Assembly (NCBI GenBank): GCA_037444485.1
Contig: JBBIMI010000001.1
Span: forward strand, 15,526 to 79,525
Source: Candidatus Micrarchaeota archaeon
Lineage (GTDB): Archaea > Micrarchaeota > Micrarchaeia > Norongarragalinales > Norongarragalinaceae
Direction of reading: 5' to 3'
DNA: 64,000 nucleotides
A program made the position numbers and the translations under genes. The notes below the pieces were generated by a model. It made no database searches. It had not been told where the DNA came from and worked only from the letters and a program-made list of their open reading frames with translations. Below are positions 11,871 to 58,232 of this stretch, piece by piece; positions within the stretch are counted from its first letter, which is position 1, and every line of letters starts with the position of its first letter.

Positions 11871-11911
11871 TTTGGTTGGCGGACTGGATTCAAGAATACT
11901 TCATAAACCCC

Positions 11912-12715: not shown

Positions 12716-12719
12716 TGAA

Positions 12720-13301: not shown

Positions 13302-13315
13302 CCAATTGATGATGA

Positions 13316-13834: not shown

Positions 13835-13836
13835 AT

Positions 13837-14820: not shown

Positions 14821-14865
14821 GAAAAATATTTGGGGAAACAAGTATTTCAATTTTTTTTAACGCCT

Positions 14866-15330: not shown

Positions 15331-15401
15331 AACCGAAAACCGTTTCCCGACGTTAAAGCGAAAAAAAGTTTTTAATTGAAAGCCGTTTAAAAACATTTTC
15401 T

Positions 15402-24586: not shown

Positions 24587-25057
24587 TCAACCCACTACCC
24601 TCGGTTTTCTGGTGATTACTGTTTCATTCAACGCGTTCGGGTGCATCGCAAAATAATCAGCTGCTTCCTTGTTTAACGCGTCGTTCGGATTCGGTTTTTC
24701 GAGTAATTGCTTTAACGCTTTTACTAGGCTCACTAGCGTCGTGCCTTCACTCCACTCGTTTAAAAGCTGAATGCATACTTTTCCGTCTTCGCTGCGAATG
24801 TTCGGGTGAAAGATTGGAGTCAACCAAGTGACTTCGATTCCGCCAGCGTAAGGGTATTCGCGCTTCAAATCGATTTGAATAGAGTGCGACTCGCGTTTTT
24901 GTAGCGAGTCCCCGTTCTTAAACAAGCTGACGCCGCGCAAGCTTATTACGTAACTCGTCTTCGACTCGTTAACCTCAAAATTTTCTTTGCTGGCAACCAT
25001 TTGTTGAAACTCGCTTTCAAGCCTGCGTCTCCAAATCGCTTCAGGAAGCATTGGCAT
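24587..25057 (-). CDS. Ubiquitin-conjugating enzyme (E2, UBC fold)-like protein.
   Basis: FHPNIRSEDGKVCIQLLNEWSEGTTLVSLVKALKQLLEKPNPNDALNKEAADYF fits the E2 HPN motif, catalytic Cys and PNP..P.N.EAA signature. Confidence 0.75.
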   Translation of the reverse strand: MPMLPEAIWRRRLESEFQQMVASKENFEVNESKTSYVISLRGVSLFKNGDSLQKRESHSIQIDLKREYPYAGGIEVTWLTPIFHPNIRSEDGKVCIQLLNEWSEGTTLVSLVKALKQLLEKPNPNDALNKEAADYFAMHPNALNETVITRKPRVVG

Positions 25058-25095
25058 TACAGACTACCTCGAAAAAACAGTTGAATGATTTGACT

Positions 25096-25359
25096 TCAAC
25101 CGCCAGTCGGATCAGGCATCAACAGCAAACGACTCCCTTCCTTTAAACCAGCGTCTGCCACCGTAATTTCAGGATTCAAAACCTTATCATCAACAGTAGA
25201 TAAAACAAAACGGTCTTTTAATTGAAGGTTTTCAGCGAGCACTTCCAAAACAGAGCTGATTGTGAAGCCCGGCTCTACCGCAACAACTATTTCCTTCCCG
25301 CTCGTGGTATGCGTTACTGTAATGTTGAATTCTTTCGAAGGCGAACTTTCCGATTCCAT
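25096..25359 (-). CDS. Ubiquitin-like beta-grasp modifier ending in a free Gly-Gly.
   Basis: 87 aa. FNITVTHTTSGKEIVVAVEPGFTISSVLEVLAENLQL...LKEGSRLLLMPDPTGG* aligns in pattern with ubiquitin and terminates in GG-stop. Confidence 0.6.
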   Translation of the reverse strand: MESESSPSKEFNITVTHTTSGKEIVVAVEPGFTISSVLEVLAENLQLKDRFVLSTVDDKVLNPEITVADAGLKEGSRLLLMPDPTGG

Positions 25360-25459
25360 GCAAAAACCACCTCAATTAAAGCACGTTAGTTAAAGCAAAA
25401 GATATTTGAACACAATATAATAATAAGTGTTGCGGTGAACAAAAGAGGTTTTTAAACCC

Positions 25460-25936
25460 GTGAATGAAGAAAAGAAAAAACCAAAGACAATAAGTGAGAA
25501 AGACGCGGTTCAAGAAGCTGGCGTTAAAGAAACCGTTGAAGAAGAAAGCAAGGAAACCGCTGAATCTAAAAACGAAAACACTAAAGAGGCGGAAAAACAA
25601 CTAGTGGAAACAAGTGAAACGAGTAAAACAAGCGAAAAAGAAGAGAAGAAGCCTAGAGTGAAAGTCGTTGTAGAACCAGTTTTCGGCGAACGCGGAACAA
25701 AACCCGTCATAACCGTCACTAGCGAGAAACCGCGTTTAGTGCGTGAAGTAGAAGAACAAGCTGCTCGAGACGTTCTGCCAACACAATCTCCGCCGGGCAC
25801 GCCGTTAGAAGCGCGGAAACCCTTGACGCGTGAAGAAGTAGTTGAGAAAGCGAAACAGGTTTGGGAAGAGAACAAGCGGAAAAAAAGTGAAGGTAAGTTC
25901 TTCAACCGCTTAAAACGCGCGTTGAAACTCGGTTAA
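25460..25936 (+). CDS. Highly charged (E/K-rich), probably disordered protein upstream of the JAMM gene.
   Basis: 158-aa ORF. Low-complexity KETAESKNENTKEAEKQ is followed by a short conserved-looking PVFGERGTKPVITV segment. Confidence 0.35.
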   Translation: MNEEKKKPKTISEKDAVQEAGVKETVEEESKETAESKNENTKEAEKQLVETSETSKTSEKEEKKPRVKVVVEPVFGERGTKPVITVTSEKPRLVREVEEQAARDVLPTQSPPGTPLEARKPLTREEVVEKAKQVWEENKRKKSEGKFFNRLKRALKLG

Positions 25937-25955
25937 AGTTGTTTAAAGCGGTGAA

Positions 25956-26417
25956 TTGATGTTCGAGGTTTACGTTCACGAGAAAGTCTTAAAGAAAGCT
26001 GAAAAACACTGCGCACGCGAAGCAGAGAGAGGACTAGAAGCGATGGGTTTGCTTTTGGGAAACGCGTTCACGCACAAGGGCCGTGAGTACGTTGTAGTCG
26101 AAGACTATTCCACTGGCGAGAATGAAGCAACAAGCGTTTCGGTGCGCTTTACGAAGAAAGCGTTTTCTAAACTCGCGAAAGACTTCGAGGAAGGTGGACG
26201 CATAATCGTTGGTTGGAGCCACGCACACCCGTCTTACGGTTGCTTCCTCTCAGCAACAGACTTGAAGACTCAAAACAATTACTTTAACGAAGATTTCCAC
26301 GTCGCGCTCGTCATAGACCCAACGCACAAAACGTCGAACGGTTTTGAAAAAAAGTTTTTCAAACTCTGCGCTGAAGGCTACCGCGAAGCTTCCTACGCGG
26401 TAATCAAAGAAAAGTGA
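25956..26417 (+). CDS. JAMM/MPN+ metalloprotease (Rpn11-like isopeptidase).
   Basis: EAMGLLLG ... VGWSHAHPSYGCFLSATD gives the E-x(n)-H-x-H-x7-S-x2-D JAMM motif. Confidence 0.8.
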   Translation: MMFEVYVHEKVLKKAEKHCAREAERGLEAMGLLLGNAFTHKGREYVVVEDYSTGENEATSVSVRFTKKAFSKLAKDFEEGGRIIVGWSHAHPSYGCFLSATDLKTQNNYFNEDFHVALVIDPTHKTSNGFEKKFFKLCAEGYREASYAVIKEK

Positions 26418-27427
26418 AAAAAATGCTTGGACAAAGCGAGACGCAGGAAAAAAACGCGAACGCACCCGCTGCTGCTGGCGCGTCAGCCGCAACTCCAGCG
26501 GCGAAGACGACAGTAAAGACAATGGTGGAGACGCGCAGAAAGAAAGCAGTCGTAAAGAAAACCGCGATTAAGATAACTAAGTTTGATAAAGCGCTCGCGC
26601 AACAAATAATTTTAGGCGAAACTAACCTAAAGAAAATCCAGGAAAAAATGCGTGTCGACGAAAAACAATTTTTTGAACGCGTGAAGAAACTAGGCGACGC
26701 TGGTTACATTGTTATTAATGAATCAAGGGAAGCCTGGTTTGGAATAAAAGGCTTTGAAGCCTTCGCCAACCAATTCAAGAAACTTGCGTCTACGCCGACG
26801 CCGAAATCCCGCGCGCGACTGGAAGAAACGCCCTCCGCGGCGCAAGCACCGCAAGCGCAGCAGACGCCAGCGCAGCAAGCGCAGCAGACGCAACAAACGC
26901 AGTCTCCCTTCACACAGCCCACGGTTCCGCCTGCGTTAGACCCTAGGCAAACTTTTCTTGCTGAAGCGACTGCAAAAGAAAAAGATGAGGTCAACGTCGA
27001 CTTGAGCGAATTGCTTAAAAAAGGTGCTCCTAAACCAAGCGACTCGATTTTCGTAAAACGCCAAAACGAAAAATCTTCTAGAGTGCTCTCTCGCGCGTTT
27101 GAAACAATTAAAACCAAGGATCCTGCAAAAGTCTCGACTGCAGGAGAATTAATTGAAGCGATTAAGAAAAGTAAGCCGAGCAGAGAGGCGTTGATGGTTG
27201 ACGGCGGCGAGGCTTGCGAATTGTGTAAAGCAAATTTTAAACTCGCTGTTGCAGGAGACGGCAACCCAAAGTACGGCCACTGCTTCTGCGGAGCAGCCTA
27301 CCATAAAGACTGTTACGAGTCCCTCGCAGGCAACAGCGGAAAATGCGTGCGCTGCGGCAAGAAACTCAAACTCGAGTTAAGCAAACAAAGCGAAGAAGCG
27401 GTTAAAGAAATAAAGGAATTATTCTGA
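26414..27427 (+). CDS. C4HC3 RING-like (treble-clef) zinc-finger protein and candidate E3. It has an N-terminal alpha-helical domain and a Q/A/P-rich linker.
   Basis: C-terminal C-x2-C-x17-H-C-x-C-x4-H-x2-C-x10-C-x2-C (CELCKANF...GHCFCGAAYHKDCYESLAGNSGKCVRCGK). The start overlaps the JAMM stop (GTG 26414 or ATG 26423). Confidence 0.55.
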   Translation: MKKMLGQSETQEKNANAPAAAGASAATPAAKTTVKTMVETRRKKAVVKKTAIKITKFDKALAQQIILGETNLKKIQEKMRVDEKQFFERVKKLGDAGYIVINESREAWFGIKGFEAFANQFKKLASTPTPKSRARLEETPSAAQAPQAQQTPAQQAQQTQQTQSPFTQPTVPPALDPRQTFLAEATAKEKDEVNVDLSELLKKGAPKPSDSIFVKRQNEKSSRVLSRAFETIKTKDPAKVSTAGELIEAIKKSKPSREALMVDGGEACELCKANFKLAVAGDGNPKYGHCFCGAAYHKDCYESLAGNSGKCVRCGKKLKLELSKQSEEAVKEIKELF

Positions 27428-27465
27428 GAAAGCGTGAAGTACCCTAAAATACTGGGTTCCGACTT

Positions 27466-28227
27466 TCAATGCACTGGGCAACTAACGCGTTTCGGAACTT
27501 CAAACAACCGTGCAGTCGACTTCAAACCGTCCAGAAAGAGGAACTTGCCTGCAAGCGTTTTCTCGCCGAAAGAATCACTGTGCACGAGCTTCAAAAACTC
27601 GTTCACTTGAATTCCTGCAACAACGCTCGTCGTCGTCGGAAGCGCCGGATTCTTTGGGTTAATCCAATCAACTAACTCTCCCACACAATTGTACTTTTGC
27701 CACAAAAGCTTGTAATCGCTTTTACTCAACCCGCACTCGAGACACGAAGAAGGAGCGCGCACTACTTGCACTTTCCCGAAAAACCCGGTTGTTCCCCCGT
27801 CAATCAAAGGAATCTTGCTGTAACACTGGGCGTTCAAATGCAGTCTCGCACCCAAGTTGTCGAGACAACCGAAAGCGTAATCGAAATTTTCGTAAAAATC
27901 TTCAGGAAGTTCTTCAATCTTCTCAGTGAAAACGCGTACCTCGGCAGTCGGATTGATTCTTGCAGCTTCGCGTTTTACCACATCAACCTTCGGCAAGCCC
28001 ACGTCTCCCTCGCTAAAGAAAACACAGCGATTCAAGTTCGCTTTCACAATCGAATCGAAGTCTACAAGCGAAATGTTTTTTACGCCGAGTTGAAGCAAGA
28101 GCTTGACGACTTCATTTCCAAGCGCGCCAGCGCCGACTACAAGCACGCGCGCCTCCGCGACTTCAGTCTGCCTCCAACCCTTCACGCGCTTTTGCCTATC
28201 GTGAACGTCCTCATCAATCGCAACCAT
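27466..28227 (-). CDS. E1-like ubiquitin/Ubl-activating enzyme (ThiF/MoeB/UBA family) with a zinc site.
   Basis: VLVVGAGALGNEV Rossmann motif, GCLDNLGARLHLNAQC catalytic segment, CLECG...CPVH zinc ligands. Confidence 0.75.
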   Translation of the reverse strand: MVAIDEDVHDRQKRVKGWRQTEVAEARVLVVGAGALGNEVVKLLLQLGVKNISLVDFDSIVKANLNRCVFFSEGDVGLPKVDVVKREAARINPTAEVRVFTEKIEELPEDFYENFDYAFGCLDNLGARLHLNAQCYSKIPLIDGGTTGFFGKVQVVRAPSSCLECGLSKSDYKLLWQKYNCVGELVDWINPKNPALPTTTSVVAGIQVNEFLKLVHSDSFGEKTLAGKFLFLDGLKSTARLFEVPKRVSCPVH

Positions 28228-29122: not shown

Positions 29123-29686
29123 ATGGACGAGTATAAAGACAAACACAAAGGCGCGCAGCGACTCTATGTTTGCGACGAGCGTGGAAACACTAGCGGCGAG
29201 ATCGTAGAACGATGGAAAGCCCACACTACGCCTGGAGTCAAACACTTGGCTTTCGGAATTCTTGTTTTAAACGAAAAAAACGAGATAGTCTTACACAAGC
29301 GGCCAGCGCGCAAAGTCGGCGGCGGGGTTCTGGACATTCCCGTCAGCCACATTCTTGAAGGCGAAACTAGAGAACAAGCCATGAACCGTTGCTTGAAAGA
29401 AGAATACGGCATAACCGCAAAACGCTTCGAGCATTACCCCGGCTTTTCGTATTATGAAGAGTATCCTGACGGAACTTGCGAAAACGAGTACTGCTTGATA
29501 AGCGTGATAAGACACGAAGGCAAGTTTAAACCCAACCCGGAGGAAGTTGAAGGCGAACTAAAAGTTTTTCCAGCAAGTAAAGTCGTCAAAGAAATAAGAA
29601 AACATCCGCGGAAATACTCTATTTGGTTTAGGAAAGCGATAGAATTGTTAGCCAACGACGAGCGCGGCAGAAAACATTTGGTTTAA
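29123..29686 (+). CDS. idi: Isopentenyl-diphosphate delta-isomerase type 1 (Nudix family).
   Basis: HLAFGILVLNEKNEIVLHKRPARK..G.LDIPVSHILEGETREQAMNRCLKEEYGI...GTCENEYCLISV parallels E. coli Idi (HLAFS.WLFN...GHP..GE..A..RR...ELG...ENEVCPVF). Confidence 0.6.
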   Translation: MDEYKDKHKGAQRLYVCDERGNTSGEIVERWKAHTTPGVKHLAFGILVLNEKNEIVLHKRPARKVGGGVLDIPVSHILEGETREQAMNRCLKEEYGITAKRFEHYPGFSYYEEYPDGTCENEYCLISVIRHEGKFKPNPEEVEGELKVFPASKVVKEIRKHPRKYSIWFRKAIELLANDERGRKHLV

Positions 29687-29718
29687 AACATTTGGTTTAA
29701 ACTTATTGAGTGATAAAC

Positions 29719-30966
29719 TTATCGATTGAAAATAATCTCCATGCTTTCCGGCTCCAAGCGCACGCCTTCATTACTCACACCCAAATTAAGGACTTCAATC
29801 TTTTTTTCCTTATAACCGCGCCAGAATTCGCGCACTTTTTCCGCAGACTCTTCGCTTAAGCATATCGCGGCTATCGAGTCGCCGCCGCCAGCGCCTGGAA
29901 GCTTGGCGACGAAAGCGCCGTGCTTAAGCGATTCGTTGACGAGTTTGCTTAGTGTCGGGGGCTCTATTGGGGCGCCGCTTTTTTCGCCTAGTTCGCGCGT
30001 TAATTCGCGCCCGCGTTCGAATTCTTGTTTGAAGCGCGTGAATAACTCGAGTTCGCTTGATGGTTTTTGTGGTTTCTGTGTGGTTTTCTTTGATTCGGCG
30101 AGCGTGAGGGTTTTGGCGTAAAGCGAAGGGTTTTGTTTCGCGAGCGCATTGATTTTTTCGAGTAAAGCTATTGCTTTCGCGTTTGCTTCGTTGAGTTCCC
30201 GCATTAAATTCGCGTACTCTTGCGGGTTTGTTGTTTTCCACGCGTTTATTTTTTTAACCATTTCGCTGGTTGAAGCGCTTTCGCCGGCAATGTTTCCGAC
30301 TACTGCGGTGAAGGAGGGCGGCATTGCGAGTGGTTTTGAAGAGTAATCCCAAGCGCTCTCTAGAGCTTCCAGAAAGTCTTTCTTCTTTAAGATGCTTGGG
30401 CTGTAACGCGAGTAAACGTGTCCGCCGTAAGTTGCGGCGGCAACGTCGAAACCGCTGCCTATCTTGCCTTGCGCCACGCAGTGAACCAACTGCGCTGTTT
30501 TGTGCAGTAATTCTTTTTCTTTTAACGCGTCGATTCCGTGAAGCGCGAGTACCGCGGCTGTCGAGGCTACTGTGACTGCTGCTGAAGCGCCGAGTCCGGC
30601 TTTAGTAGCGCCTAGTCCGAATGCTGGGTCGCTGAACGTGGTTAATTCTATTCCGTTGAAAGAAATGTTTTTGCGGATAAAGTAATTGAAGCAAGTTTCG
30701 ACGGCGCCCCGCATGAATTTTGTGGCTGAATCTTGTTCTGGGGTTAACGGGTTTTTGAAAACCAGTTTGTTTAACTCGAATGCTGCTTCAGCGAACGCGT
30801 TGAATTGCGGGGCGTTTAACACGACCTTGTTTTCGTCAAGCTTTCGCGCGCGCACGAAAACGCGTTTGTTTACTCCGGTAACGAAGGAAACATTTGGTTT
30901 TTCGAGAACCGAATACCCGCCAATCCAAAGTATTTTCCCGGGCGCTGACGCAATGCAAGAATTCAT
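29719..30966 (-). CDS. Phosphomevalonate kinase (GHMP kinase, ERG8-like).
   Basis: SAPGKILWIGGYSVLE N-terminal signature of PMK. GHMP motif GLGASAAVTVA. Confidence 0.7.
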   Translation of the reverse strand: MNSCIASAPGKILWIGGYSVLEKPNVSFVTGVNKRVFVRARKLDENKVVLNAPQFNAFAEAAFELNKLVFKNPLTPEQDSATKFMRGAVETCFNYFIRKNISFNGIELTTFSDPAFGLGATKAGLGASAAVTVASTAAVLALHGIDALKEKELLHKTAQLVHCVAQGKIGSGFDVAAATYGGHVYSRYSPSILKKKDFLEALESAWDYSSKPLAMPPSFTAVVGNIAGESASTSEMVKKINAWKTTNPQEYANLMRELNEANAKAIALLEKINALAKQNPSLYAKTLTLAESKKTTQKPQKPSSELELFTRFKQEFERGRELTRELGEKSGAPIEPPTLSKLVNESLKHGAFVAKLPGAGGGDSIAAICLSEESAEKVREFWRGYKEKKIEVLNLGVSNEGVRLEPESMEIIFNR

Positions 30967-30970
30967 TTCA

Positions 30971-31738
30971 CTACCTTCTCAAGACTTCCTTCAACACTTG
31001 TTTAGCGTTTTCAAGAATAAAATCAGCTTGTTTTGCGAGTTCTTCACGCTTGCTGTTTCCAGTTAAAACGCCTATTGTTTTCACTCCAGCTCGTTTTCCA
31101 GCAATTATTCCTGCAAGCGAATCCTCTACGAGAACAACTTCTTGAGGGAAAACGCCTAGTTTTTTTAACGCGTAGTTTATCATTGACGGGCTTGGTTTTT
31201 CCTTTAAACGTTTTTCCTTCAAACCAGCGTCTTCAGTAACCAGCAAATCAACTTTAAAACCGAATTTCTTAATTAACGATGAAGCAAACAGTTTGTTGGC
31301 GTTCGTGATTATCACGGTTTTAAAGCCTTTATTACGCAGTTGTTTCAACAAACTCGCGGAACCCTGAATTTTTTTCGCGAGGTTCAAGAGTCTTCCAGGA
31401 TTCCTGCGAATTCTAGAGTACTCGCGGACAGCGACTTCACTTTCAACAAGTTCAGCTTTAGAAAGATTGTTTACCGCCTTGCGTAGTTTTACGCGTGTCG
31501 CTTGAAGACGCGCTCCGCTTCCCGCTTTCTTAATGCCTAACTTGTTTAAAGCGATGAGCGCTTTAAAAAAATCTTGTTTTTTATGAAACTCTGGAAGAGA
31601 GCGAATCGCGTAAACGTCGCGCACTCGAAAACACGGTTTTACGCCGGCGTGCGCTAAGGCTTTCTCTACAACCTTTTCTTGAAACCTACCGTAATCCACT
31701 AGCACTCCTTCGAGGTCGAAAAAAACGGCGCGAATCAA
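30971..31738 (-). CDS. HAD-superfamily hydrolase.
   Basis: VFFDLEGVLVD motif I and ITNANK/GVKTIG..TGN later HAD motifs. Sits between the MDD and PMK genes on the same strand. Confidence 0.65.
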   Translation of the reverse strand: MIRAVFFDLEGVLVDYGRFQEKVVEKALAHAGVKPCFRVRDVYAIRSLPEFHKKQDFFKALIALNKLGIKKAGSGARLQATRVKLRKAVNNLSKAELVESEVAVREYSRIRRNPGRLLNLAKKIQGSASLLKQLRNKGFKTVIITNANKLFASSLIKKFGFKVDLLVTEDAGLKEKRLKEKPSPSMINYALKKLGVFPQEVVLVEDSLAGIIAGKRAGVKTIGVLTGNSKREELAKQADFILENAKQVLKEVLRR

Positions 31739-31754
31739 ACGCAGACACCAACCT

Positions 31755-32828
31755 TTATTTCACGATTATTCTGCCGCTTGCCTCATCATACCAGTGTTCG
31801 CGAATGTTGCCGCTTGAGTCAAGCAAGTGTTCGTTAACGTACTTCGGCCCAAAACCAACTTTGCAAACCAGTATTTTCTGAACGCCTTCAACTTCAGCCA
31901 AAACTTTTTTTACTTCATCAACGTGTTTTTCAACAGTAAAAACGTGAGCGTTGGGGCCAGCGTCGAAAGTGTAACCAGCCTTTATTTCGCCCGCAGCGTT
32001 GTTAAAGTCTATTATTGAAGCCATTATTTGTTTTGAAACGTCGTTCAAATACGTTATTGGCGGCCACGTGTCGAGCATTACCGCGTGCATGTTGCTTGAT
32101 TCACGCATAGTCGCTTCGAGAAGCGTCGGCAAGTCTTTGCGTAGAATCGCGTTGCGCACGGTTTCAAGAGTCTTCGGCAAGTCTCGAAGCCGCTTTTGAT
32201 AAAGACTGCTTGTCGCCACCGTCTGCTTCATTCCAGCGCGAGAAGAAATTTTTTTCTTTCCTTGCTCTACGATTGCAATCACGTTACGCAACTCCAGCCA
32301 ATGCGACGGCGGCGCGATTTGAATTGCTAACGAATCGCTGCCGTCGCTCTTGACTCCGCGTTTCCACTCGACGAAACCGCCGAGAACACTGCGGCAAGCG
32401 CTGCCTGAACCCAAGCGCGCGAGAATAGATAATTCGCTTGAAGACAAGTTGAGGCCGGCTGCTTTGGAAGCAGCGCAAGCAAGCGCAGCCAAGCCGGCAG
32501 CGCTTGACGCGAAGCCAGCCGCGGTCGGAAAACAATTGAGTGAAACTATTCTTGCTTTTGCGTTTATTCCGGCTTTTTCTCGAATGACGTTCAATTGTTG
32601 CATGCGTTCAGCTGTTTCCTTGTCGTTCAAGTCAAGCTTTCTTCCATTCAACCAAACTTCGTCTTCCGCGAATTTTTCTGAAAACATGACGGTCGTACGC
32701 GTTTTCAGCGTTTCATCCATAGTCACAGAAATGCTTCCTTCCTGCGGCAGAATCAGTTTTTCGTCGCGTTTCCCCCAGTATTTTACTAACGCGATGTTTG
32801 CAGTTGCTTCAACAGTTGAAATACTCAT
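31755..32828 (-). CDS. mvd: Diphosphomevalonate decarboxylase.
   Basis: ANIALVKYWGKRDE signature. GHMP GFASSAAGLAALA. Confidence 0.8.
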   Translation of the reverse strand: MSISTVEATANIALVKYWGKRDEKLILPQEGSISVTMDETLKTRTTVMFSEKFAEDEVWLNGRKLDLNDKETAERMQQLNVIREKAGINAKARIVSLNCFPTAAGFASSAAGLAALACAASKAAGLNLSSSELSILARLGSGSACRSVLGGFVEWKRGVKSDGSDSLAIQIAPPSHWLELRNVIAIVEQGKKKISSRAGMKQTVATSSLYQKRLRDLPKTLETVRNAILRKDLPTLLEATMRESSNMHAVMLDTWPPITYLNDVSKQIMASIIDFNNAAGEIKAGYTFDAGPNAHVFTVEKHVDEVKKVLAEVEGVQKILVCKVGFGPKYVNEHLLDSSGNIREHWYDEASGRIIVK

Positions 32829-33726
32829 TTAATCCCCCCTCGCTGCGTTTCAAGAGTTCTTTAACGTAATTGATTGAGTCAAACAGTATTCTGCGCTCGC
32901 ACGCATTTAATCGTTTATCTTCAGCGAAAAGCTTTAAATCGCGTTCGAAAAAACGCTTGAATTTTTTAACTGCTTGTTTTTCTGGAATGCGTTTCTTTCC
33001 ACAATCGTAAAAAAAGTTTAACACTGCTAATGCGCCGACACGTTTCAACCAACTGCGGACAAGCGGGTTTTCAACCCCGGCCTCCCGCTGCAAAACACGC
33101 ACGTACTCGGAAACAAAGCTTAAAGAATCGCGCGCTTCAGGAAAAACTTGCAACAACAACCGGCCAGCAGAACTTTTCAAAAACGTTTTCGACTTACGCA
33201 AGCGTTTTTTGTAGTAAGAGATTATTGTTGCAGCGTTGAGAGGCGCGCCGCTCTCGCCGAGATACAAGTTTCTTCGAAAAACAATGTGTTCCGCAAACTG
33301 GTCTAGTTTGTCAGCTGCCTTCAATGCTCGCCCTACAAGGGAAGAAACACGTTTCACTCTCCGAAAACCATTCGGGGAAAGCCCAAACGAATGCGAAGCG
33401 ATAGCGTCACAAACCAATTTCACTTCTTCAACCGAAAAACCGTATTTCGGCAGTATGCTTGCAGCCGCTTGCGCGGAAGCGACTTCATGCTCGTCCGCTA
33501 AACCCATCTTTTTTAAAAGGTTTTCAGGAATCCGCAGCCAATCGTGAAACAAGCCGGCTATAAATCCAAGTTCCTGCTCACGCAGCGAACCACCGCCTTT
33601 TTTTACGAGCTCGCGAGTCAAAAGCGCTACGGGCAGGATGTGCTCGCGCCAAGAGTGAACCTTCGAATGCAATCCCTTCCGCGTTCTCTCCTCGTAATGC
33701 TTTTCAGCAAAACTAGTCAATTTCAT
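32809..33726 (-). CDS. HD-domain-like hypothetical protein.
   Basis: HSWREHILPVALLTREL ... GLFHDWLRIPE ... D. 305-aa ORF. The 3' end overlaps the mvd start by about 20 nt. Confidence 0.4.
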   Translation of the reverse strand: MKLTSFAEKHYEERTRKGLHSKVHSWREHILPVALLTRELVKKGGGSLREQELGFIAGLFHDWLRIPENLLKKMGLADEHEVASAQAAASILPKYGFSVEEVKLVCDAIASHSFGLSPNGFRRVKRVSSLVGRALKAADKLDQFAEHIVFRRNLYLGESGAPLNAATIISYYKKRLRKSKTFLKSSAGRLLLQVFPEARDSLSFVSEYVRVLQREAGVENPLVRSWLKRVGALAVLNFFYDCGKKRIPEKQAVKKFKRFFERDLKLFAEDKRLNACERRILFDSINYVKELLKRSEGGLNEYFNC

Positions 33727-33789
33727 TCTTGGAATACCGTTTTAGATTACTTTTAGATTACTGCGTTTACTGCGAATATCGCCGTATTT

Positions 33790-34935
33790 CTATAGGCGGT
33801 TCACTATTTTCTCGAACTCTTCGCGGGCTTTACGCTTTGATTCAGCTTCAATTTCAGAAACCCACTTGCCCGCGTATTCGCCTGAAGGCTTGGCGTAAAC
33901 GTCAGGGTGCGCGTAATGCAAGACGAGTTGAGCTGCTTGATTCGCTTTTTCCTTGCTTATTGAAGAAATCATTTTTTTAGAATCTTTAGGAATGTTTTCC
34001 TTAATTTTTTCAGAAAACTCTTCCAATCCAGGGTAGCCGTGATTCAACCCAAATTCTAGGAGTTCGTCCTCTGATTCGAAGTTGAAGTGTTTTATCAAGC
34101 TGTAGTAAACGTCTTCCTCCATTTTTCGCATTCTGTTAACTTCACTCACCAATTCTGGCGGGTAGTCTGAAGCAGTTTTCTTTGCTCTAATCCTCAGCAG
34201 CGACTCCAGCAGGAAAGCGAGTTTTTTAGTATCAGCGACAGTGAATTTTCTTTCCTCTCGCATACCCAAAAGTTTTTCGACGAAAGGCTTCATTTCTAGA
34301 TCGGTATCGTGTCTTTTTCCAGCTACGAATTCCGCTCGTCTTTTCACTACTGTAGCGCCGAGTCCTTCAGGCCCCTTGTCACCCCAAGTCAAGCCAAGCA
34401 ATACTATTTTCTCTAACAAGGGCTTGTTCTCGTCCTCTAATTTTTCTCTTATTTTTTCTAACGACAACTCGTTGTCTTGAATGGCTTTCGTAATTGCATT
34501 GAATTCAGAATCGGTTAAGAACGTCAACCCAGTTTCATCCTCCTTGATTTTTCCTTCACGAATTTGCTTCAACCACGCGCTCCTGCGCTTTTCAAGCAGT
34601 CTTACAGTCTTGAAACCGTCAGACTGACTTAATGCAGACAATCCGGTTTTTCCAGTTTCTCCCGCTCGCCTTATTAAATCGTGAACAATCGCGGCAATTC
34701 CAGCCAAGTTCGCTAAAGCCTTTACGGAATCAGAATTCAAGCGTTGCTTGCGCGCGTTTTCTTCAGCGACCCGCATTGCTTCTAAAGCAGCTGGATAAAC
34801 GTGGTCCCGCGCGTGAGCGGGCTCTCGCCCGCCGCTCTTTTCAAGAGTATCGTAGGCTTTGTTGAAGTACGAAAAAACTTTTTTTAAAGCCTTGGTTGTC
34901 CGTTTTCTCGCTTCACTCGGGTTTTCAAACACCAT
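33790..34935 (-). CDS. Hypothetical protein with a possible HD-like metal site.
   Basis: 381-aa ORF. AHARDHVYPAALEAM...AIVHDLIRR. Confidence 0.4.
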   Translation of the reverse strand: MVFENPSEARKRTTKALKKVFSYFNKAYDTLEKSGGREPAHARDHVYPAALEAMRVAEENARKQRLNSDSVKALANLAGIAAIVHDLIRRAGETGKTGLSALSQSDGFKTVRLLEKRRSAWLKQIREGKIKEDETGLTFLTDSEFNAITKAIQDNELSLEKIREKLEDENKPLLEKIVLLGLTWGDKGPEGLGATVVKRRAEFVAGKRHDTDLEMKPFVEKLLGMREERKFTVADTKKLAFLLESLLRIRAKKTASDYPPELVSEVNRMRKMEEDVYYSLIKHFNFESEDELLEFGLNHGYPGLEEFSEKIKENIPKDSKKMISSISKEKANQAAQLVLHYAHPDVYAKPSGEYAGKWVSEIEAESKRKAREEFEKIVNRL

Positions 34936-35149
34936 GAATTAAATTTGAGTAAACTGATTTTATAAACGTTTACGCAATAAACGTTTGCGTATTGGCTCGC
35001 ATACAGATTATTGTTTTAAACAATTTTTTCAAGAAACAGGAAACAATTTTTTTCAACAATTTTTTTTCAATAAATATTTTTTCAACAAACAAAGAACAAT
35101 TATTTTTAAAACAAGAATAATTATTTTCAACAAGTAGTGGGAAAAACGA

Positions 35150-36232
35150 ATGGCGAACAATTTCGTAAAAATAATTGCGAGCGCGCCGAACAAAATTCAT
35201 GTTGCTGGCGAGCACAGCGTCGTTTACGGTGGAATAGCTTTAATCGCTCCAGTTGAAGTGGATGAAAAACGCAACGTTGTGGAATTAATCGCTGAACCCG
35301 GCCAGCCTCAGCTAGAGTTTATAGGAAAAGGTTACGGAAAAACCGGGAGGGCAGTACTGCATGCTGACGGGACGATGAACGGGGACAACGAATGGAAGCC
35401 GATGCTTGAAGTAGCGCAACACGTTTTAGAAGACTGCGAAAAAAACTTGAAAGACTTGAATACTAGTATAACCGCTGAACGGTTTTTCAGTGGTGCGCCG
35501 AAAGGAACAGGCAATTCAGCTTCAATTCCAGCAGCATTCGCTTCCGCGTTATACGCGTTTTTGGGAAAAAAACCAAGCAAGCAAGAACTTTACGATGCGG
35601 CTTTCATTGCGGACAACGCGTGGCATGGCGGAAAGTCAAGCGGTGGAGACGTGCAAGCAGTAATTTCGAACCATCCACAAAAATTCTGGAGAGAATTCAC
35701 TCGAAAAGGCGTAAAACCACGTTACCAAGACTTTAGTGGAACGCTTCCGAAAAACACTGTTTTAGTGTTAATAGATTCTTTCAGGGGTGTTGGAGAGAAA
35801 TCCACTACGGCGCTCCAAATCGAGAAATTCGCTGCAGCTAACGGAATAACTAGAAAACCTTTCGAATTAACTGAACAGGAAAGAAAAAAAATATGTAAGC
35901 CTTACGATGAAGTCATCGAAAAAATAGAAAGCGAAATGCGTTTTGACGGAAACCCTGAAAAACTCGGGGCATACTTCAACGAAAACCACGAGTTACTGAA
36001 AAAATCAAATGTTTCAAGTCCAGACATTGAAGAAGCTATTTCAGTAAGCAAGCGAAACGGCGCTCTAGGAGCGAAACTAATCGGCGCCGGAGGCGTTGGG
36101 GGGGCAGTCATAGCCCTCTGCATGCGAGAAAAAACGCGTTTAATAACGAATGCGCTTGCGGAAAAAAAATTTAATAGTTGGACGGTCAAATTCGCTGAAA
36201 AAGGAGCTTGCGTGGATTCGATGCAAAAATGA
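35150..36232 (+). CDS. mvk: Mevalonate kinase.
   Basis: SAPNKIHVAGEHSVVYGG N-terminal GHMP signature. GTGNSASIPAAFASALY. C-terminal GAKLIGAGGVGGAVIAL. Confidence 0.8.
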   Translation: MANNFVKIIASAPNKIHVAGEHSVVYGGIALIAPVEVDEKRNVVELIAEPGQPQLEFIGKGYGKTGRAVLHADGTMNGDNEWKPMLEVAQHVLEDCEKNLKDLNTSITAERFFSGAPKGTGNSASIPAAFASALYAFLGKKPSKQELYDAAFIADNAWHGGKSSGGDVQAVISNHPQKFWREFTRKGVKPRYQDFSGTLPKNTVLVLIDSFRGVGEKSTTALQIEKFAAANGITRKPFELTEQERKKICKPYDEVIEKIESEMRFDGNPEKLGAYFNENHELLKKSNVSSPDIEEAISVSKRNGALGAKLIGAGGVGGAVIALCMREKTRLITNALAEKKFNSWTVKFAEKGACVDSMQK

Positions 36233-43261: not shown

Positions 43262-44563
43262 TTAAAAGTTAACCCTCAATTCGGCAAGCAATTCACGCGC
43301 TCGGTCCACGCTTATTTTTTTCTCTTCAACCATCTTCCGCGCTATAACGTCAATCAACTCGCCTTTAGCGCCCGCCAAAACCGCGATGTTCTTCGCGTGC
43401 AGTTTCATGTGCCCCGCTTGAATTCCTTCGGTAGCAAGCGCGCGAAGCGCAGCGAAATTTTGAGCCAAGCCCACCGCTGCCATAACCTCGCCTAATTCGC
43501 GTGCAGTCTTCACGCCGAGAAGCTTTACGCAAACGCGCGCCACCGGATGCGTTTTCGTCGCGCCGCCGACTAAGCCGAGCGCGACAGGCAGAGTTATTTC
43601 TCCGATTAAGTCCCCTTTCTCGTTCTTGTAGTACTTCGTCAAAGGCGAGTATTTGCCTGAAAGCGCTGCGAAAGCGTGCGCGCCTGCCTCGAGCGCGCGC
43701 CAATCGTTTCCAGTGGCAATCGCTACAGCGTCAACGCCATTCATTATTCCCTTGTTGTGCGTGCAAGCGCGGTATTCGTCGCTTGCCGCGAACGCGTAAG
43801 CGTCGAGAATGCGTTCGATTGTTTCCTCTCCGCCGCAAACTCCTTCGACAGCGAGCTCGCTTTTAGGAAAAACAGCTTTAGCGTGAGCAGTGCGGTTGAC
43901 TGCGAGGTTTGAAATGATGCGCAAGCGCGCGCTCGCTCTAGTAAGCTCTTCCAATTTAGGGGCAAGCGCTTCACTCATCGTGTTCACCGTATTCGCGCCC
44001 ATCGCGTCCCGCACGTCGACAAGCAAGTGCACTGCAAGCATTTTGCCGCGCGGCGAATCGACGACGCGCGATTCAATCCCTCGCGCGCCTCCACCGTGTT
44101 CTACAAGAGTTTTGTCTAGAGTGTTGACGAAAGCAATCAGTTTTTGTTCCTGTTCTTTAATAATCTTGATTGCGTTAGCCCAATCGTTTTCATTAAAACG
44201 CGGATTAACGAGCTGAATCTGTCCAATCATCACGGGCTCAGTCGAAGTAGTAGTGAAACCGCTTGCAGCCCGCGCGATTTTCGCGGCTTTGCTTGCAGCA
44301 GCGACCACGCTTGGTTCTTCGATTGCGAAAGGAATAAAGTAATCTCGGCCGTTGATTTTAAAGTTTGTAGCGATTCCGATCGGCAGTTGCGTTGTTCCAA
44401 CAACGTTTTCAATCATTCTATTCGCTGTTTCCGCGCCCAGCCCACCGTAATGGCTTAAAATCGTCGCTTCTTCTTGAGTTAACCCAGCAAAGTTTCGCAC
44501 GAATTCGAGGCGTTCGGCAGCGGAAAGCTTGTAAAACTCTTTCACTTCAGAAGATTTTTCCAT
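43262..44563 (-). CDS. hmgA: 3-hydroxy-3-methylglutaryl-CoA reductase.
   Basis: ENVVGTTQLPIGIATNFKINGRDYFIPFAIEEPSVVAAASKAAK, DAMGANTVNTM, GTVGG-type segments. Confidence 0.85.
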   Translation of the reverse strand: MEKSSEVKEFYKLSAAERLEFVRNFAGLTQEEATILSHYGGLGAETANRMIENVVGTTQLPIGIATNFKINGRDYFIPFAIEEPSVVAAASKAAKIARAASGFTTTSTEPVMIGQIQLVNPRFNENDWANAIKIIKEQEQKLIAFVNTLDKTLVEHGGGARGIESRVVDSPRGKMLAVHLLVDVRDAMGANTVNTMSEALAPKLEELTRASARLRIISNLAVNRTAHAKAVFPKSELAVEGVCGGEETIERILDAYAFAASDEYRACTHNKGIMNGVDAVAIATGNDWRALEAGAHAFAALSGKYSPLTKYYKNEKGDLIGEITLPVALGLVGGATKTHPVARVCVKLLGVKTARELGEVMAAVGLAQNFAALRALATEGIQAGHMKLHAKNIAVLAGAKGELIDVIARKMVEEKKISVDRARELLAELRVNF

Positions 44564-44749: not shown

Positions 44750-45796
44750 GTGACTGCTGGAATAATTGGTTACGGGACCGCAATACCGCGCTTGCGCATA
44801 AAGCCAAGCGAAATAGCGCGAGTGTGGGGTAAAGACGGCGAACGCGTAAGCGCGAGCTTGAACGTCAAAGAAAAAGCAGTCGCAGCCTTCGACGAAGATT
44901 CTTGCACTCTCGCTGTTGAAGCAGCGAGGGAAGCGCTTGAAACAGCGCGAATCAAGCCAACGCAAATTGGAGCCGTCTTCGTTGGAAGTGAAAGCAAACC
45001 GTACGCAGTCAAGCCAACTGCAACCATAGTCGCTGAAGCAATAGAAGCGACACCCAACCTCACTGCAGCCGACTTCGAATTCGCTTGCAAAGCAGGCACT
45101 ACTGGAATTCAAGCACTCATGGGAATGACTGAAAGCGGAATCATTGATTACGGGATTGCAATAGGTTCAGACACTGCTCAAGGCAGGCCTGCAGACGCTC
45201 TCGAGTACACCGCAGGCAGCGGTGCAGGCGCTTTCATAATCGGAAAACAAGACCCTATTGCGACAATCGACGCTACCTTCTCGTTCACTACAGACACTCC
45301 GGATTTTTGGCGCAGGCAACACGCGGAATTCCCGCGCCACGCAGGCCGTTTTACTGGCAAGCCAGCCTTCTTCAAACACGTGGTAAGCGCGGCTCAAGGA
45401 CTCATGAAAAAAACAGGTTTGACTGCAGAAGATTTCAATTACGTGGTCTTCCATCAGCCCAACGGCAAATTCCCGTTGGAAGCAGGCAAGATTCTCGGCT
45501 TCGAAAAACAAAAACTCGAACAAGGACTAATAACGCCTTACATTGGCAACACTTACAGCGGAGCTTCAATGATTGGGCTCGCAAGCGTCTTAGACGCCGC
45601 CAAGCCCGGCGACAAGATTCTAGTAGTCTCTTACGGCAGCGGCGCAGGCAGCGATGCGTTTGCTATCACCGTCACTGAAGCAATAAAGCAATCCGGCCGC
45701 AGGCCGAAGAAAAGTGTTTTCGAAAAAATCCGCGACAAGGAATACGTTGACTACGCACTCTACGCAAAACACAGAAAGAAAATCAAGAGCTTGTGA
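44750..45796 (+). CDS. Hydroxymethylglutaryl-CoA synthase (archaeal type).
   Basis: MTAGIIGYGTAIPRLRIK N-terminus, catalytic FEFACKAGT, HQPNGKF, YIGNTYSGAS. Confidence 0.8.
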   Translation: MTAGIIGYGTAIPRLRIKPSEIARVWGKDGERVSASLNVKEKAVAAFDEDSCTLAVEAAREALETARIKPTQIGAVFVGSESKPYAVKPTATIVAEAIEATPNLTAADFEFACKAGTTGIQALMGMTESGIIDYGIAIGSDTAQGRPADALEYTAGSGAGAFIIGKQDPIATIDATFSFTTDTPDFWRRQHAEFPRHAGRFTGKPAFFKHVVSAAQGLMKKTGLTAEDFNYVVFHQPNGKFPLEAGKILGFEKQKLEQGLITPYIGNTYSGASMIGLASVLDAAKPGDKILVVSYGSGAGSDAFAITVTEAIKQSGRRPKKSVFEKIRDKEYVDYALYAKHRKKIKSL

Positions 45797-46222: not shown

Positions 46223-47395
46223 GTGAAACTCATGCGCAAGGTTTCAGTAATAGGGGCTGCTTACACAAAGTTCGGCGAACACTGGGAAAAAAGCTTTAGA
46301 GAACTCGCCGTCGAGGCGGGCGTAAAAGCACTGCAAGACGCGCACATGGAAGGCAAAGACATTCAAGCGCTTTACGGCGCCAGCATGGCCAGCGGCACGT
46401 TTATCGGACAAGAACACGTTGGCGCGCTCTTAGCAGACCAAATGGGTTTAAACCCGATTCCAGCAATACGTTGTGAAGCTGCCTGCGCCAGCGGCGGCGT
46501 TGCGTTCAGGCAAGCTTACCTCGCGGTTGCAAGCGGTGCTTACGACATCGTCGCAGTCGGAGGCGTCGAGAAAATGACTGACGTCAGCGTCGAAGAAGCC
46601 GCAACTGCGCTTGGAGGCGCGGGCGATCAAGAATGGGAATTGTTTTACGGCGCTACTTTTCCAGCGATTTACGCGTTAATGGCGCAAAAATACTTGCACG
46701 ATTTTAATGCGAAAGAAGAAGAATTCGCTGCAGTAGCAGTCAAAAACCACTACAACGGCGCGAGAAACCCGCTAGCACAATACCAGAAAGAAATCACTAT
46801 CGAAGACGTCATGAACTCGGGCTACATCGCCACACCACTCAAACTACTCGACTGTTCACCAATCACTGACGGCGCTGCCGCAGTCATCCTTTGCGCTTCA
46901 GAACACGCAAAGAAATACACCGACCAACCAATCGAAATAATCGCGAGCGCGCAAGCCAGCGACACGCTCGCGCTTGCAAGCAGGCACTGCCTCACAGAAC
47001 TCCATGCTACTAAAGTAGCCGCGAGAGAAGCATTCAAGCAAGCCCGCCTCACGCCAAAAGACATTGACGCAGCCGAAGTACACGATTGCTTCACGTCCGC
47101 GGAAGTGATGGCGATCGAAGACTTAGGATTCTTCGAGAAAGGCAAAGGCGCGAAAGCAACTAGCGACGGCGCGACTGCATTAAACGCAGAAATCTCAGTC
47201 AACACCAGCGGCGGCTTGAAAAGCTGCGGCCACCCAGTTGCCGCAACCGGCATCAAGCAAGTATGCGAAATCGTGGAACAACTCCGCGGCGGCGCGAAAG
47301 AAAGACAAGTAAGCGGCGCGGAAATAGGCTTGACTCACAACGTTGGGGGCAGTGGCGCGACTGCGGTTGTCCACATATTCAAGAGAGGGGATTAA
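46223..47395 (+). CDS. Acetyl-CoA C-acetyltransferase (thiolase), archaeal HMGCS partner.
   Basis: Thiolase fold: active-site Cys region IRCEAACASGGVAFRQAY. C-terminal GHPVAATGIKQVCEI and NVGGSGAT. Confidence 0.85.
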   Translation: MKLMRKVSVIGAAYTKFGEHWEKSFRELAVEAGVKALQDAHMEGKDIQALYGASMASGTFIGQEHVGALLADQMGLNPIPAIRCEAACASGGVAFRQAYLAVASGAYDIVAVGGVEKMTDVSVEEAATALGGAGDQEWELFYGATFPAIYALMAQKYLHDFNAKEEEFAAVAVKNHYNGARNPLAQYQKEITIEDVMNSGYIATPLKLLDCSPITDGAAAVILCASEHAKKYTDQPIEIIASAQASDTLALASRHCLTELHATKVAAREAFKQARLTPKDIDAAEVHDCFTSAEVMAIEDLGFFEKGKGAKATSDGATALNAEISVNTSGGLKSCGHPVAATGIKQVCEIVEQLRGGAKERQVSGAEIGLTHNVGGSGATAVVHIFKRGD

Positions 47396-47414
47396 AATTA
47401 GGCATGCTTTACCG

Positions 47415-47798
47415 TTGATTTGGCGCAGGATTCCAGAACGCTACAACCTACTCGGCTCAACATGCCAAAACTGCGGCGTTTCTTACTATCCTGAACGCAA
47501 GATCTGTCCCAAATGCAGACGCCACGGAAAACTCGTTAAACAAAAAATGCCTCGTGAAGGCAAGATCGTCAGTTACACTCAAGTGCATGCTGCTCCAAAA
47601 GGCTTCGAGCACGAAACGCCTTACTGGCTGGCAATCGTAGAACTCGACAACGGCGCCAAACTAATGGCGCAAATCGTGGACTCGCCGAAAGAAAAAATCG
47701 TTGAAGGCGCGCGCGTGCAAGCCTGCTTCCGCAAAATATTTGAAGATAACGAAGAAGGCGCGATCGCTTACGGATACAAGTTTAAAGTCGTTTACTAA
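47415..47798 (+). CDS. DUF35 protein (Zn-ribbon plus OB-fold scaffold of the thiolase/HMGCS complex).
   Basis: CQNCGVSYYPERKICPKC zinc ribbon followed by an OB-fold-like segment. Conserved gene order after thiolase. Probable TTG start at 47415. Confidence 0.65.
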   Translation: MIWRRIPERYNLLGSTCQNCGVSYYPERKICPKCRRHGKLVKQKMPREGKIVSYTQVHAAPKGFEHETPYWLAIVELDNGAKLMAQIVDSPKEKIVEGARVQACFRKIFEDNEEGAIAYGYKFKVVY

Positions 47799-57053: not shown

Positions 57054-58232
57054 TTGAAAAAAGATTATGACGCGGTTGTAGTCGGGGCTGGACCTGCAGG
57101 CAGCGTATTCGCGCGCACAGCTGCGGCGAAAGGACTAGATGTCCTAGTCGTAGACAAGAAAAAAGACTTGGGGACTCCAGTGCGTTGCGGCGAGGGACTC
57201 GACGCTAAATACTTTCGCGAGTTCGACTTGCCGCTAGTTCCAGGCGCACAACCATTTGAAATAAACGGGGCTGCCTTGTACGGCCCAAAGCGGCAGAAAA
57301 TCGTCTTACGCACCGCGATGACAAAGGGCTTCGTGCTCGAACGAAAGATTTTCGACAAGCACTTAGCGATTCAAGCGATTAGGAAAGGCGCGCACTTCCT
57401 ACCGAAAACCCTTGCAACAGGACTAATCAAAGAAGAGGGAAAAATTGCGGGCGTTAAAGCCATTCATGACGGCGTCGAACTCGAATTCCATGCATCCCTC
57501 ATAGTCTCAGCAGAAGGCATGGAAGCGAAAATAGCGCGCGAAGCCGGCTTTCCCGCGCTTGCGACGCTTTACGATACTGACACTTGTTACGAATACGAAA
57601 TGGCGAACGTCGAATGCGAAGACCTTATCGAAATTTATTTCGGCAACGAAATCGCGCCAAGAGGGTACGTATGGGTTTTTCCAAAGGGTAAAGACGTTGC
57701 GAACGTAGGCATCGGCGTGGGGGCGGCGACCGGCGCGAATCCGAAAGAACTTCTCGACCGTTTCATTGCAAGTGAAACGCGTTTCAAGTCAGCAGAGCCC
57801 ATTGAAGTAAAGGGAGGCTTAATCAGCGTGGGCGCGCCGATTCGCGAGTTCGTGAAAGACAATTTTATGGTAATCGGCACTGCAGCACACCAAGTAGACC
57901 CTATTCACGGCGGCGGCATCGGCCTCGCGGTCGAAGCCGGGTTCATCGCCGGCAACGTCGCCGCGGAAGCGGTTGAACAAAAAAATTTTTCGAAGAATTT
58001 TCTAGCGAAATACGAGCGCGAGTGGCGCGAGAGGGAAGGCGCGAAACTCGAAAAACGCTTGAAACTGCGTCACGTCATTGAAAAACTGAACGACGATGAC
58101 TTGAACCACATTTTTAATGAGGTGAATGAAGCTGATGTGGATGCGTTGCTGCGGGGCGAGTACAAGAGCGTAGTCGCAAAGGTTTTGTTGAAGCGCCCAA
58201 GCATGCTGAAAATTGTTTCCGCGCTCGCGTGA
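57054..58232 (+). CDS. Geranylgeranyl reductase (digeranylgeranylglycerophospholipid reductase; FAD-dependent).
   Basis: YDAVVVGAGPAGS FAD-binding fold, RCGEGL, and C-terminal GDAA/G.G motifs typical of GGR. Confidence 0.85.
   Translation: MKKDYDAVVVGAGPAGSVFARTAAAKGLDVLVVDKKKDLGTPVRCGEGLDAKYFREFDLPLVPGAQPFEINGAALYGPKRQKIVLRTAMTKGFVLERKIFDKHLAIQAIRKGAHFLPKTLATGLIKEEGKIAGVKAIHDGVELEFHASLIVSAEGMEAKIAREAGFPALATLYDTDTCYEYEMANVECEDLIEIYFGNEIAPRGYVWVFPKGKDVANVGIGVGAATGANPKELLDRFIASETRFKSAEPIEVKGGLISVGAPIREFVKDNFMVIGTAAHQVDPIHGGGIGLAVEAGFIAGNVAAEAVEQKNFSKNFLAKYEREWREREGAKLEKRLKLRHVIEKLNDDDLNHIFNEVNEADVDALLRGEYKSVVAKVLLKRPSMLKIVSALA

Follow-up and report, generated by a model that had tools for sequence, protein, structure and literature searches.

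The 64,000-nt stretch of DNA analyzed here (the window), from contig JBBIMI010000001.1 of a Candidatus Micrarchaeota archaeon, carries a cluster of genes for the lower part of the mevalonate (MVA) pathway. In minus-strand order these are the genes of a 381-aa protein, an HD-domain phosphohydrolase, diphosphomevalonate decarboxylase (MDD or DMD), a HAD-family phosphatase and phosphomevalonate kinase (PMK). The spacings between them range from -20 to +63 nt, and the five genes are predicted to be co-transcribed. Mevalonate kinase (MVK) is encoded divergently, and a Nudix superfamily protein, designated IDIL here (as is its clade), is encoded by a gene that runs towards PMK and is preceded by an AT-rich region of its own (table 1). 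The open reading frames (ORFs) given for MVK, PMK, MDD and the Nudix protein in an initial annotation of this DNA were all reproduced in the ORF list of the window. The classical lower MVA set within an isoprenoid supercluster that was described there is supported by profiles, motifs, matches to solved structures and conserved synteny. On this evidence the region quite probably represents the classical (eukaryote/Sulfolobus-type) lower MVA route of a DPANN archaeon, with the final step most probably catalyzed by IDIL. The pathway was assigned from gene identities, residue patterns and synteny; the transcription units and enzyme activities are predictions.

MDD passed the curated equivalog cut-off of the NCBIfam model TIGR01240 (317.3 bits, cut-off 171.35), whereas it scored 155.6 bits on the model for phosphomevalonate decarboxylase (PMD; NF040704), for which the cut-off is 475. 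It could be aligned end to end with the fungal, human and Saccharolobus DMDs, with the motifs YWGK, GSGSACRS, KKISSR and TFDAGPN conserved. The catalytic Asp (TFDAGPN), the Arg (GSGSACRS), the Lys loop (KKISSR) and the phosphate-binding YWGK all align with the Saccharolobus structure 5gmd. With 259 bits to 5gmd and 261–276 bits to the fungal and human enzymes (fungal 6xr5, 276 bits), MDD is equally close to both groups. This likeness fits the published phylogeny, in which PMVK and DPMD of Micrarchaeota stand with those of Sulfolobales at the base of the eukaryotic clade.

An alignment of decarboxylases across loci of related genomes (numbered with the prefix L) showed Arg at position 197, within the motif KK(I/V)(S/K)SR, in 13/13 enzymes that are paired with PMK, including MDD of the window. 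The Saccharolobus DMD has the same motif, whereas the three decarboxylases that are paired with isopentenyl phosphate kinase (IPK) and lack PMK have Thr, Glu or Asn. Since Arg197 tracks the pairing with PMK and no IPK was found in the window, these results support a route via the diphosphate. The decarboxylases of the window, L007, L038 and L039 are of the eukaryote/Sulfolobus-like type (TFDAGPNAH) and those of Iainarchaeota have FTIDGGPQVK, suggesting that the two types were acquired separately.

For PMK, the three best NCBIfam families were all PMK models, namely the ERG8-type TIGR01219 (198 bits), the archaeal NF040957 (136 bits) and the Gram-positive TIGR01220 (84 bits), with the MVK model behind them at 71 bits. 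The protein contains the P-loop GLGASAA as well as SAPGKILWIGGYSVLE (PGK-x5-GGY) and KLPGAGGGDS (GAGGGD motif), which resemble motifs of yeast ERG8. The peptides SAPGKILWIGGYSVLE and ANIALVKYWGKRD, both quoted in the initial annotation, are present in the translations. Homologs of PMK are called phosphomevalonate kinase by some sources, and the gene is co-operonic with MDD in many genomes. The best family for MVK was TIGR00549, and its best PDB matches were MVKs without exception. Its sequence GKSSGGDVQ (the catalytic Asp region, SGxD) aligns with GKPSGIDTQ of the S. aureus MVK 2x7i, and it carries SAPNKIHVAGEHSVV, which includes the MVK-typical GEH motif (PxK...GEH), as well as LIGAGGVGG (GAGG motif).

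In the proposed pathway, MVK would phosphorylate mevalonate, the ERG8-type PMK would yield mevalonate 5-diphosphate, and MDD would turn this product into isopentenyl diphosphate (IPP). The step from IPP to dimethylallyl diphosphate (DMAPP) would most probably be carried out by IDIL. Homologs of IPK, AcnX, UbiD, UbiX and the type 2 isopentenyl diphosphate isomerase (IDI2) were all absent from the window. The three GHMP-family enzymes and the order of reactions are the same as in the classical MVA route of Sulfolobales, some Micrarchaeota and Asgard archaea. Compared with that route, the window genes stand in an operon with HAD, HD and unclassified genes, the slot that they occupy holds an archaeal-type module in sister genomes, and the window encodes a class II HMG-CoA reductase (HMGR). 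A classical lower MVA route (MVK, PMK, MDD) is the correct reading for this Micrarchaeota archaeon, but it is not a new one, because the route has already been published for the group. MVK, PMVK and DPMD were reported for Micrarchaeota species by Hoshino & Gaucher (2018, PMC6107057), metagenome-assembled genomes of DPANN and Asgard archaea with PMK and DMD were found in a 2024 survey (PMC11052028), and complete MVA pathways including PMVK, MVD and idi were described for Norongarragalinales in a 2025 study of Micrarchaeota (PMC12892359).

The profile scores of the two kinases weigh against these assignments. PMK remained below the curated cut-offs of all three models (198 against 377, 136 against 500 and 84 against 166 bits), which are still its best families. 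MVK similarly has the expected best family and motif and reached 110.5 of the required 163.05 bits. The low scores of PMK would fit a haloarchaeal-type route in which the decarboxylase is a PMD and the "PMK" a second mevalonate kinase or another GHMP kinase. It would also fit such a route that MDD, at 249 bits, matches the Anaerolinea enzyme 6n0z/6n0x, which was deposited as DMD and has been characterized as PMD according to PMC9254496. This explanation is nevertheless very improbable, as no IPK lies in the window, the DMD model was passed and the PMD model missed by a wide interval (156 against 475), and MDD is in the PMK-paired Arg197 state. The kinase itself has the ERG8-like GGY motif and the higher score on a PMK model (198 against 71 bits for MVK), and a separate bona fide MVK is present. 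Contamination of an archaeal bin with bacterial or eukaryotic DNA, or an assembly chimera, might be suspected from the eukaryote/Sulfolobus-like type of PMK and MDD and from the label Chloroflexi on the records of two related loci (L021, L031), but is extremely improbable. The operon is flanked by archaeal genes for DTD2, E1-like ThiF, RNase HII, S3Ae and a class I aminoacyl-tRNA synthetase. An identical MDD is encoded, in the same gene order (381-aa protein-HD-MDD-HAD-PMK), on a Logan contig that was assembled independently, the same arrangement is found in the relative L038 (PMK 81% identical), and the GC content is unremarkable. Archaeal genes around the cluster include DTD2, S3Ae, L7Ae, Nre and fibrillarin, and homologs of PMK and of the Nudix protein carry the names Candidatus Micrarchaeota, Norongarragalinales, Micrarchaeia, Aenigmatarchaeota and Diapherotrites.

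IDIL had been annotated initially as a type 1 isomerase (IDI1). Its best NCBIfam families are two IDI models (NF002995, 94.1 bits, cut-off 127; TIGR02150, 42.2 bits, cut-off 105.8), its best PDB sequence matches are IDIs (3hyq, 4e-14), and it aligns over its full length with the IDIs of E. coli and Salmonella. An AlphaFold2 (AF2) model, built from a 31-sequence alignment that did not contain the E. coli IDI sequence, had a predicted local distance difference test score (pLDDT) of 93.8. The best Foldseek matches of this model were E. coli IDI (template modeling score, TM, 0.78–0.83) and human IDI1, with an overall TM range of 0.73–0.83. The metal ligands of E. coli IDI (H25, H32, H69, E114 and E116) are matched in IDIL by H34, H41, H76, E120 and E122, and E. 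coli E87, Y104 and W161 by E94, Y110 and W168. Arg30, Arg60 and Lys64 take the places of the diphosphate-binding Lys21, Arg51 and Lys55. The IDI1 fold, the metal ligands and the aligned Glu, Tyr and Trp thus agree with the initial annotation, but of the catalytic Cys/Glu pair of IDI1 only the Glu aligns. At the position of E. coli Cys67, IDIL has Val74 (motif PVSH; VCGH in E. coli and CCSH, with Cys87, in human IDI1). A misalignment is unlikely because the position is fixed by an adjacent metal ligand, the third metal-binding His, two residues further on. The active-site face of the Val74 strand is hydrophobic (Leu70, Ile72, Val74).

The absence of the Cys is general in this clade. Among 37 genome-encoded IDILs, position 74 was Val in 19, Thr in 17 and Ala in one, and Cys in none, whereas the five metal ligands, E94 and Y110 were invariant and W168 was conserved in 36/37, the exception being a truncated ORF. 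Conserved in the same set were Cys119 (37/37), Cys124 (34/37) and His58 (36/37). The Nudix box (S75-x5-E81-x7-R89-C90-L-K-E93-E94-Y-G-I) is an incomplete version of GX5EX7REUXEEXGU, without the Gly and the first Glu of REUXEE. The latter position (90) is Glu in hydrolase-like relatives and is not Glu in IDIL and the Cys-less group, nor in true IDIs. Compared with the type 1 enzymes (E. coli Idi, human IDI1), IDIL therefore shares the fold (TM about 0.8), the metal site, the equivalents of Glu87, Tyr104 and Trp161, the diphosphate-binding Lys/Arg residues and the degenerate Nudix box, but has Val, Thr or Ala instead of the thiol base Cys67. By its residue pattern, IDIL is neither a canonical IDI1, since Val74 occupies the catalytic Cys position, nor a typical Nudix hydrolase.

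A profile search of 1.84 billion representative sequences (50% identity) yielded 7450 relatives, the best 150 of which were examined. The whole IDI metal/Trp core was present in 96 of these 150, and 54 of the 96 lacked Cys74. The 42 Cys74-bearing IDI1 proteins in this set usually have other residues at the two positions that are invariant or nearly so in IDIL (Cys119 in 3/42, His58 in 6/42). Cys124 occurred in 47/54 Cys74-less and 9/42 Cys74-bearing sequences (Fisher p = 6e-11, uncorrected for phylogeny). A relocation of the catalytic Cys from position 74 to 124 was considered and downgraded, as part of the pattern stems from the existence of two sequence classes (CCSH...EHExD and ENExC) and E. 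coli IDI has both cysteines. A literature search for Cys-less or "IDI-like" type 1 isomerases and for E. coli Cys118 returned nothing relevant.

Among GTDB species representatives, 36 loci with IDIL were detected, in Micrarchaeota, Norongarragalinales and Iainarchaeota, and the pathway genes were mapped onto these loci by phmmer. Lower MVA genes were found in the fetched DNA of 26/36 loci, irrespective of the route. Classical PMK and MDD accompany IDIL in L007-L010, L016, L018, L020, L024, L029, L030, L033, L037 and L038, and the archaeal-type genes for IPK, AcnX, UbiD and UbiX in L002-L006, L011, L014, L015, L017, L021 and L032. L028 has IPK and a decarboxylase without PMK, and L025 and L027 combine the archaeal-type set with a decarboxylase. 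In L010 the genes for HMGR, HMG-CoA synthase (HMGCS), thiolase (THL), DUF35, MVK, MDD, PMK and IDIL all lie collinearly on a single strand. A Thermoproteota homolog of IDIL (P0340) has no MVA context. The records of L021 and L031 are labeled Chloroflexi/Chloroflexota yet show the archaeal DTD2-IDIL arrangement, in L021 together with an archaeal-type MVA cluster; both are probably mis-binned DPANN contigs.

Several loci place a different isomerase where IDIL stands elsewhere. In L045-L048, which were anchored on IDI2, the order is HMGR-HMGCS-THL-DUF35-MVK-[lower module]-IDI2-DTD2 and IDIL is absent, so that IDI2 takes the place between DTD2 and the MVA cluster that IDIL has in other genomes. 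In L049 a canonical IDI1, which bears the Cys and is fused to PMK, fills the same role. The type 2, FMN-dependent enzyme, which is the usual isomerase of archaea, is a TIM barrel with a flavin cofactor and is unrelated to the IDIL fold. Because their position in the gene neighborhood is alike, IDI2 and IDIL presumably serve the same pathway step. IDI2 was found within the fetched DNA at 1/36 IDIL loci, in a search whose probe was an approximate sequence of B. subtilis Fni; the probe detected the true FMN_dh-type IDI2 in L031, and its negatives are weaker than those of a profile search.

The fused protein of L049 (P0088, 535 aa, positions 6052-7659) joins an ERG8-type PMK to a canonical type 1 IDI with the motif NACCSHP, and may be either a genuine fusion or the product of a frameshift artefact. 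Its cluster also encodes MDD, MVK, a methyltransferase-like protein and a weak homolog of the 381-aa protein. Another composite product, of 592 aa with radical SAM and amino-acid-kinase (IPK-type) domains, is encoded just upstream of IDI2 in the archaeal-type MVA cluster of L045 (8174-9952).

Several observations weigh against an isomerase function of IDIL. Mutants of the yeast and E. coli enzymes with Ala or Val in place of the Cys are essentially inactive, and from such mutants, Cys-to-Ser ones included, the lack of the thiol base would be expected to abolish activity in the canonical scaffold. IDIL remained below both curated IDI cut-offs, its homologs are named merely "NUDIX domain-containing protein" by NCBI, and four IDIL loci (L022, L023, L026, L034, with flanks of 3.2–10 kb) had no MVA genes nearby. 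IDIL and IDI2 lie side by side in L031. Since IDI2 is also common among Diapherotrites and occurs in some Micrarchaeota, an IDI2 gene may lie outside the 64-kb window. IDIL could then be a protein that binds IPP, DMAPP or a related diphosphate in another role (hydrolysis to the monophosphate, hydration or sensing), with IDI2 as the real isomerase. The replacement of the catalytic Cys in 37/37 genomes and the wide occurrence of IDI2 among related DPANN would agree with this, and the recurrence of a second Nudix paralog (NUDIX2) and of HAD/HD hydrolases in the clusters suggests that phosphohydrolase chemistry on the intermediates is common. Such a role is unlikely, although it carries real weight: the IDI-specific His3Glu2 metal site, the acid Glu, the Tyr and the Trp are kept, the first REUXEE Glu that is characteristic of hydrolases is missing, IDI2 accompanies IDIL at a single locus of the 36, and the loci with IDI2 in the IDIL slot lack IDIL, which looks like isofunctional displacement.

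We lean slightly towards IDIL being a Cys67-independent IPP isomerase. This is favored mainly because one slot is filled alternately by IDIL, IDI2 or canonical IDI1, as one would expect where an isofunctional gene has been displaced by a non-orthologous one. Without the Cys67 thiol, IDIL would need another base, for which the clade-invariant Cys119, along with Cys124 and His58, would be candidates; alternatively, the acid Glu122 could act on both steps. More tentatively, with a chance that we put somewhat short of even, IDIL may represent a mechanistically distinct subclass of type 1-fold isomerases (using Cys119, Cys124 or His58, or a single-base Glu) that serves many Micrarchaeota and Iainarchaeota as their sole isomerase and has Cys74-less relatives that are common in uncultured lineages.

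The paralog NUDIX2 is a second Cys-less, IDI/YfcD-like Nudix protein of about 173 aa with the motifs SAAEH and EDNEL (L011, 10535-11056, minus strand), which scored 100 bits on an IDI model and 64 bits on YfcD. Equivalents occur in L012-L018, L020, L021, L024, L025, L027, L028, L032, L033 and L036, where the gene adjoins IPK or lies between PMK and MDD; NUDIX2 is absent from the window.

The window shares the frame ThiF-DTD2-IDIL-[module]-MVK-RNaseHII with its closest species representatives (L002-L005), in which the MVK orthologs adjoin RNase HII as well. The module within this frame (29719-34935 in the window) consists of PMK, HAD, MDD, HD and the 381-aa protein, instead of which L002-L005 have IPK (plus strand), AcnXS, AcnXL, UbiD and UbiX (at about 10500-15500). 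The locus and the flanking genes are therefore those of the archaeal-type lower MVA route (AcnX, UbiD-type decarboxylase with UbiX, IPK), whereas the genes of that route are missing from the window. Conserved flanks with differing modules indicate that the lower pathway was exchanged in place. As judged from gene order, the lower MVA module is a swappable cassette, exchanged between fairly close relatives.

Within the module, the HAD gene is separated by 4 nt from the PMK start and by 16 nt from the MDD stop. The L038 cluster retains the arrangement 381-aa protein-HD-MDD-PMK and lacks HAD, and other HAD genes lie within the MVA clusters of L007, L015, L021, L045 and L046. The HD protein, conserved in L038, has HD homologs (42 bits, E = 1e-13) encoded inside the MVA clusters of L015, L017, L025 and L048, which comprise both route types. 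The 381-aa protein had no Pfam or NCBIfam match, permissive Pfam scans included, and a single-sequence AF2 model of it was discarded (pLDDT 42). Its H..HD motif aligns with the neighboring HD protein (E = 0.006), and it may be a divergent HD-like protein. Like the HD protein, it is conserved in L038, and its weak homolog in the classical cluster of L049 matches at E = 3e-6. Phosphohydrolase genes (HAD, HD and possibly HD-like) are thus embedded in classical and archaeal-type MVA clusters across DPANN lineages.

The AT-rich spacer between the 381-aa protein gene and MVK contains TATA-like stretches, as judged by eye, about 25–30 nt upstream of both start codons, and is predicted to serve as a shared promoter region for the operon and the divergent MVK. 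Imperfect tandem repeats at 35042-35127 (a 14-nt unit, AACAATTTTTTTTC, in 3.4 copies and a 21-nt unit in 1.9 copies) could be regulator binding sites or plain AT-rich low-complexity sequence.

Table 1. Genes and other features of the window discussed in the text, with positions counted from its first nucleotide.
Feature	Position	Strand	Length, profile matches and remarks
PMK, phosphomevalonate kinase, ERG8/GHMP type	29719..30966	-	415 aa; GHMP_kinases_N (PF00288), GHMP_kinases_C (PF08544), PMK models
MDD/DMD, diphosphomevalonate decarboxylase	31755..32828	-	357 aa; TIGR01240, PF22700 (MVD-like_N), PF18376 (MDD_C)
MVK, mevalonate kinase	35150..36232	+	360 aa; GHMP N and C domains, TIGR00549
IDIL, IDI1-fold Nudix superfamily protein without catalytic Cys	29123..29686	+	187 aa; putative IPP/DMAPP isomerase
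HAD-family phosphatase between MDD and PMK	30971..31738	-	Pfam Hydrolase, HAD_2
HD-domain phosphohydrolase, accessory	32809..33726	-	PF01966; 20-nt overlap with MDD
381-aa protein, first gene of the predicted minus-strand operon	33790..34935	-	H..HD motif; no Pfam or NCBIfam match
Divergent AT-rich spacer, minus-strand operon/MVK	34936..35149	.	214 bp
Class II HMGR	43262..44563	-	PF00368, 367 bits; TIGR00532, 448 bits (cut-off 260)
Archaeal HMG-CoA synthase	44750..45796	+	NF003274, 553 bits
Thiolase	46223..47395	+	NF004720, 572 bits
DUF35/OB-fold scaffold protein	47343..47798	+	PF01796, PF12172
Geranylgeranyl reductase family protein (GGR)	57054..58232	+	PF22578; TIGR02032, 233 bits (cut-off 159)
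E2 (UQ_con)	24587-25057	-	Pfam
JAB/MPN protease	25956-26417	+	profile match
337-aa protein with C-terminal Cys/His-rich RING-like motif	26414-27427	+	no Pfam match
E1-like ThiF	27466-28227	-	also 72 bits on the Ube1 model
5S rRNA gene	8490-8604		79 bits

The upper pathway genes (class II HMGR, archaeal HMGCS, thiolase and DUF35) lie 7 kb from the lower pathway genes. Their presence further along the window, and that of GGR, had been proposed initially and was confirmed by Pfam and NCBIfam matches. Adjoining HMGR, a 348-aa protein encoded at 42204-43250 (plus strand) had no family match, just weak ones of the coiled-coil type.

A set of eukaryote-like ubiquitylation genes (24587-28227) immediately precedes the MVA cluster. 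ThiF and JAB are conserved in L038, and in L002-L005 ThiF alone was mapped. Scans of the window for tRNA and Rfam families gave nothing besides the 5S rRNA gene. A stretch of low GC content (0.345 at 20001-22000, about 0.47 elsewhere) lies beside genes for an Lhr-type helicase and a Cas4-like nuclease.

The novelty that remains beside the published route lies in the conserved Cys67-less, IDI1-fold protein in the isomerase slot and in the cassette-like swapping of lower MVA modules. In related genomes a single chromosomal slot shows three arrangements, namely archaeal (AcnX, UbiD, UbiX, IPK), classical (PMK, MDD) and PMD-like (an MDD-like decarboxylase with IPK), which together give a concrete picture of mevalonate routes replacing each other by cassette exchange. 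Annotations of "idi" on proteins such as IDIL assign an activity that the textbook IDI1 mechanism disallows. Either the IDI1 mechanism has an unrecognized variant, or the pathway reconstructions for Micrarchaeota and Iainarchaeota miss their isomerase. This question and the cassette exchange both bear on the evolution and enzymology of isoprenoid biosynthesis.

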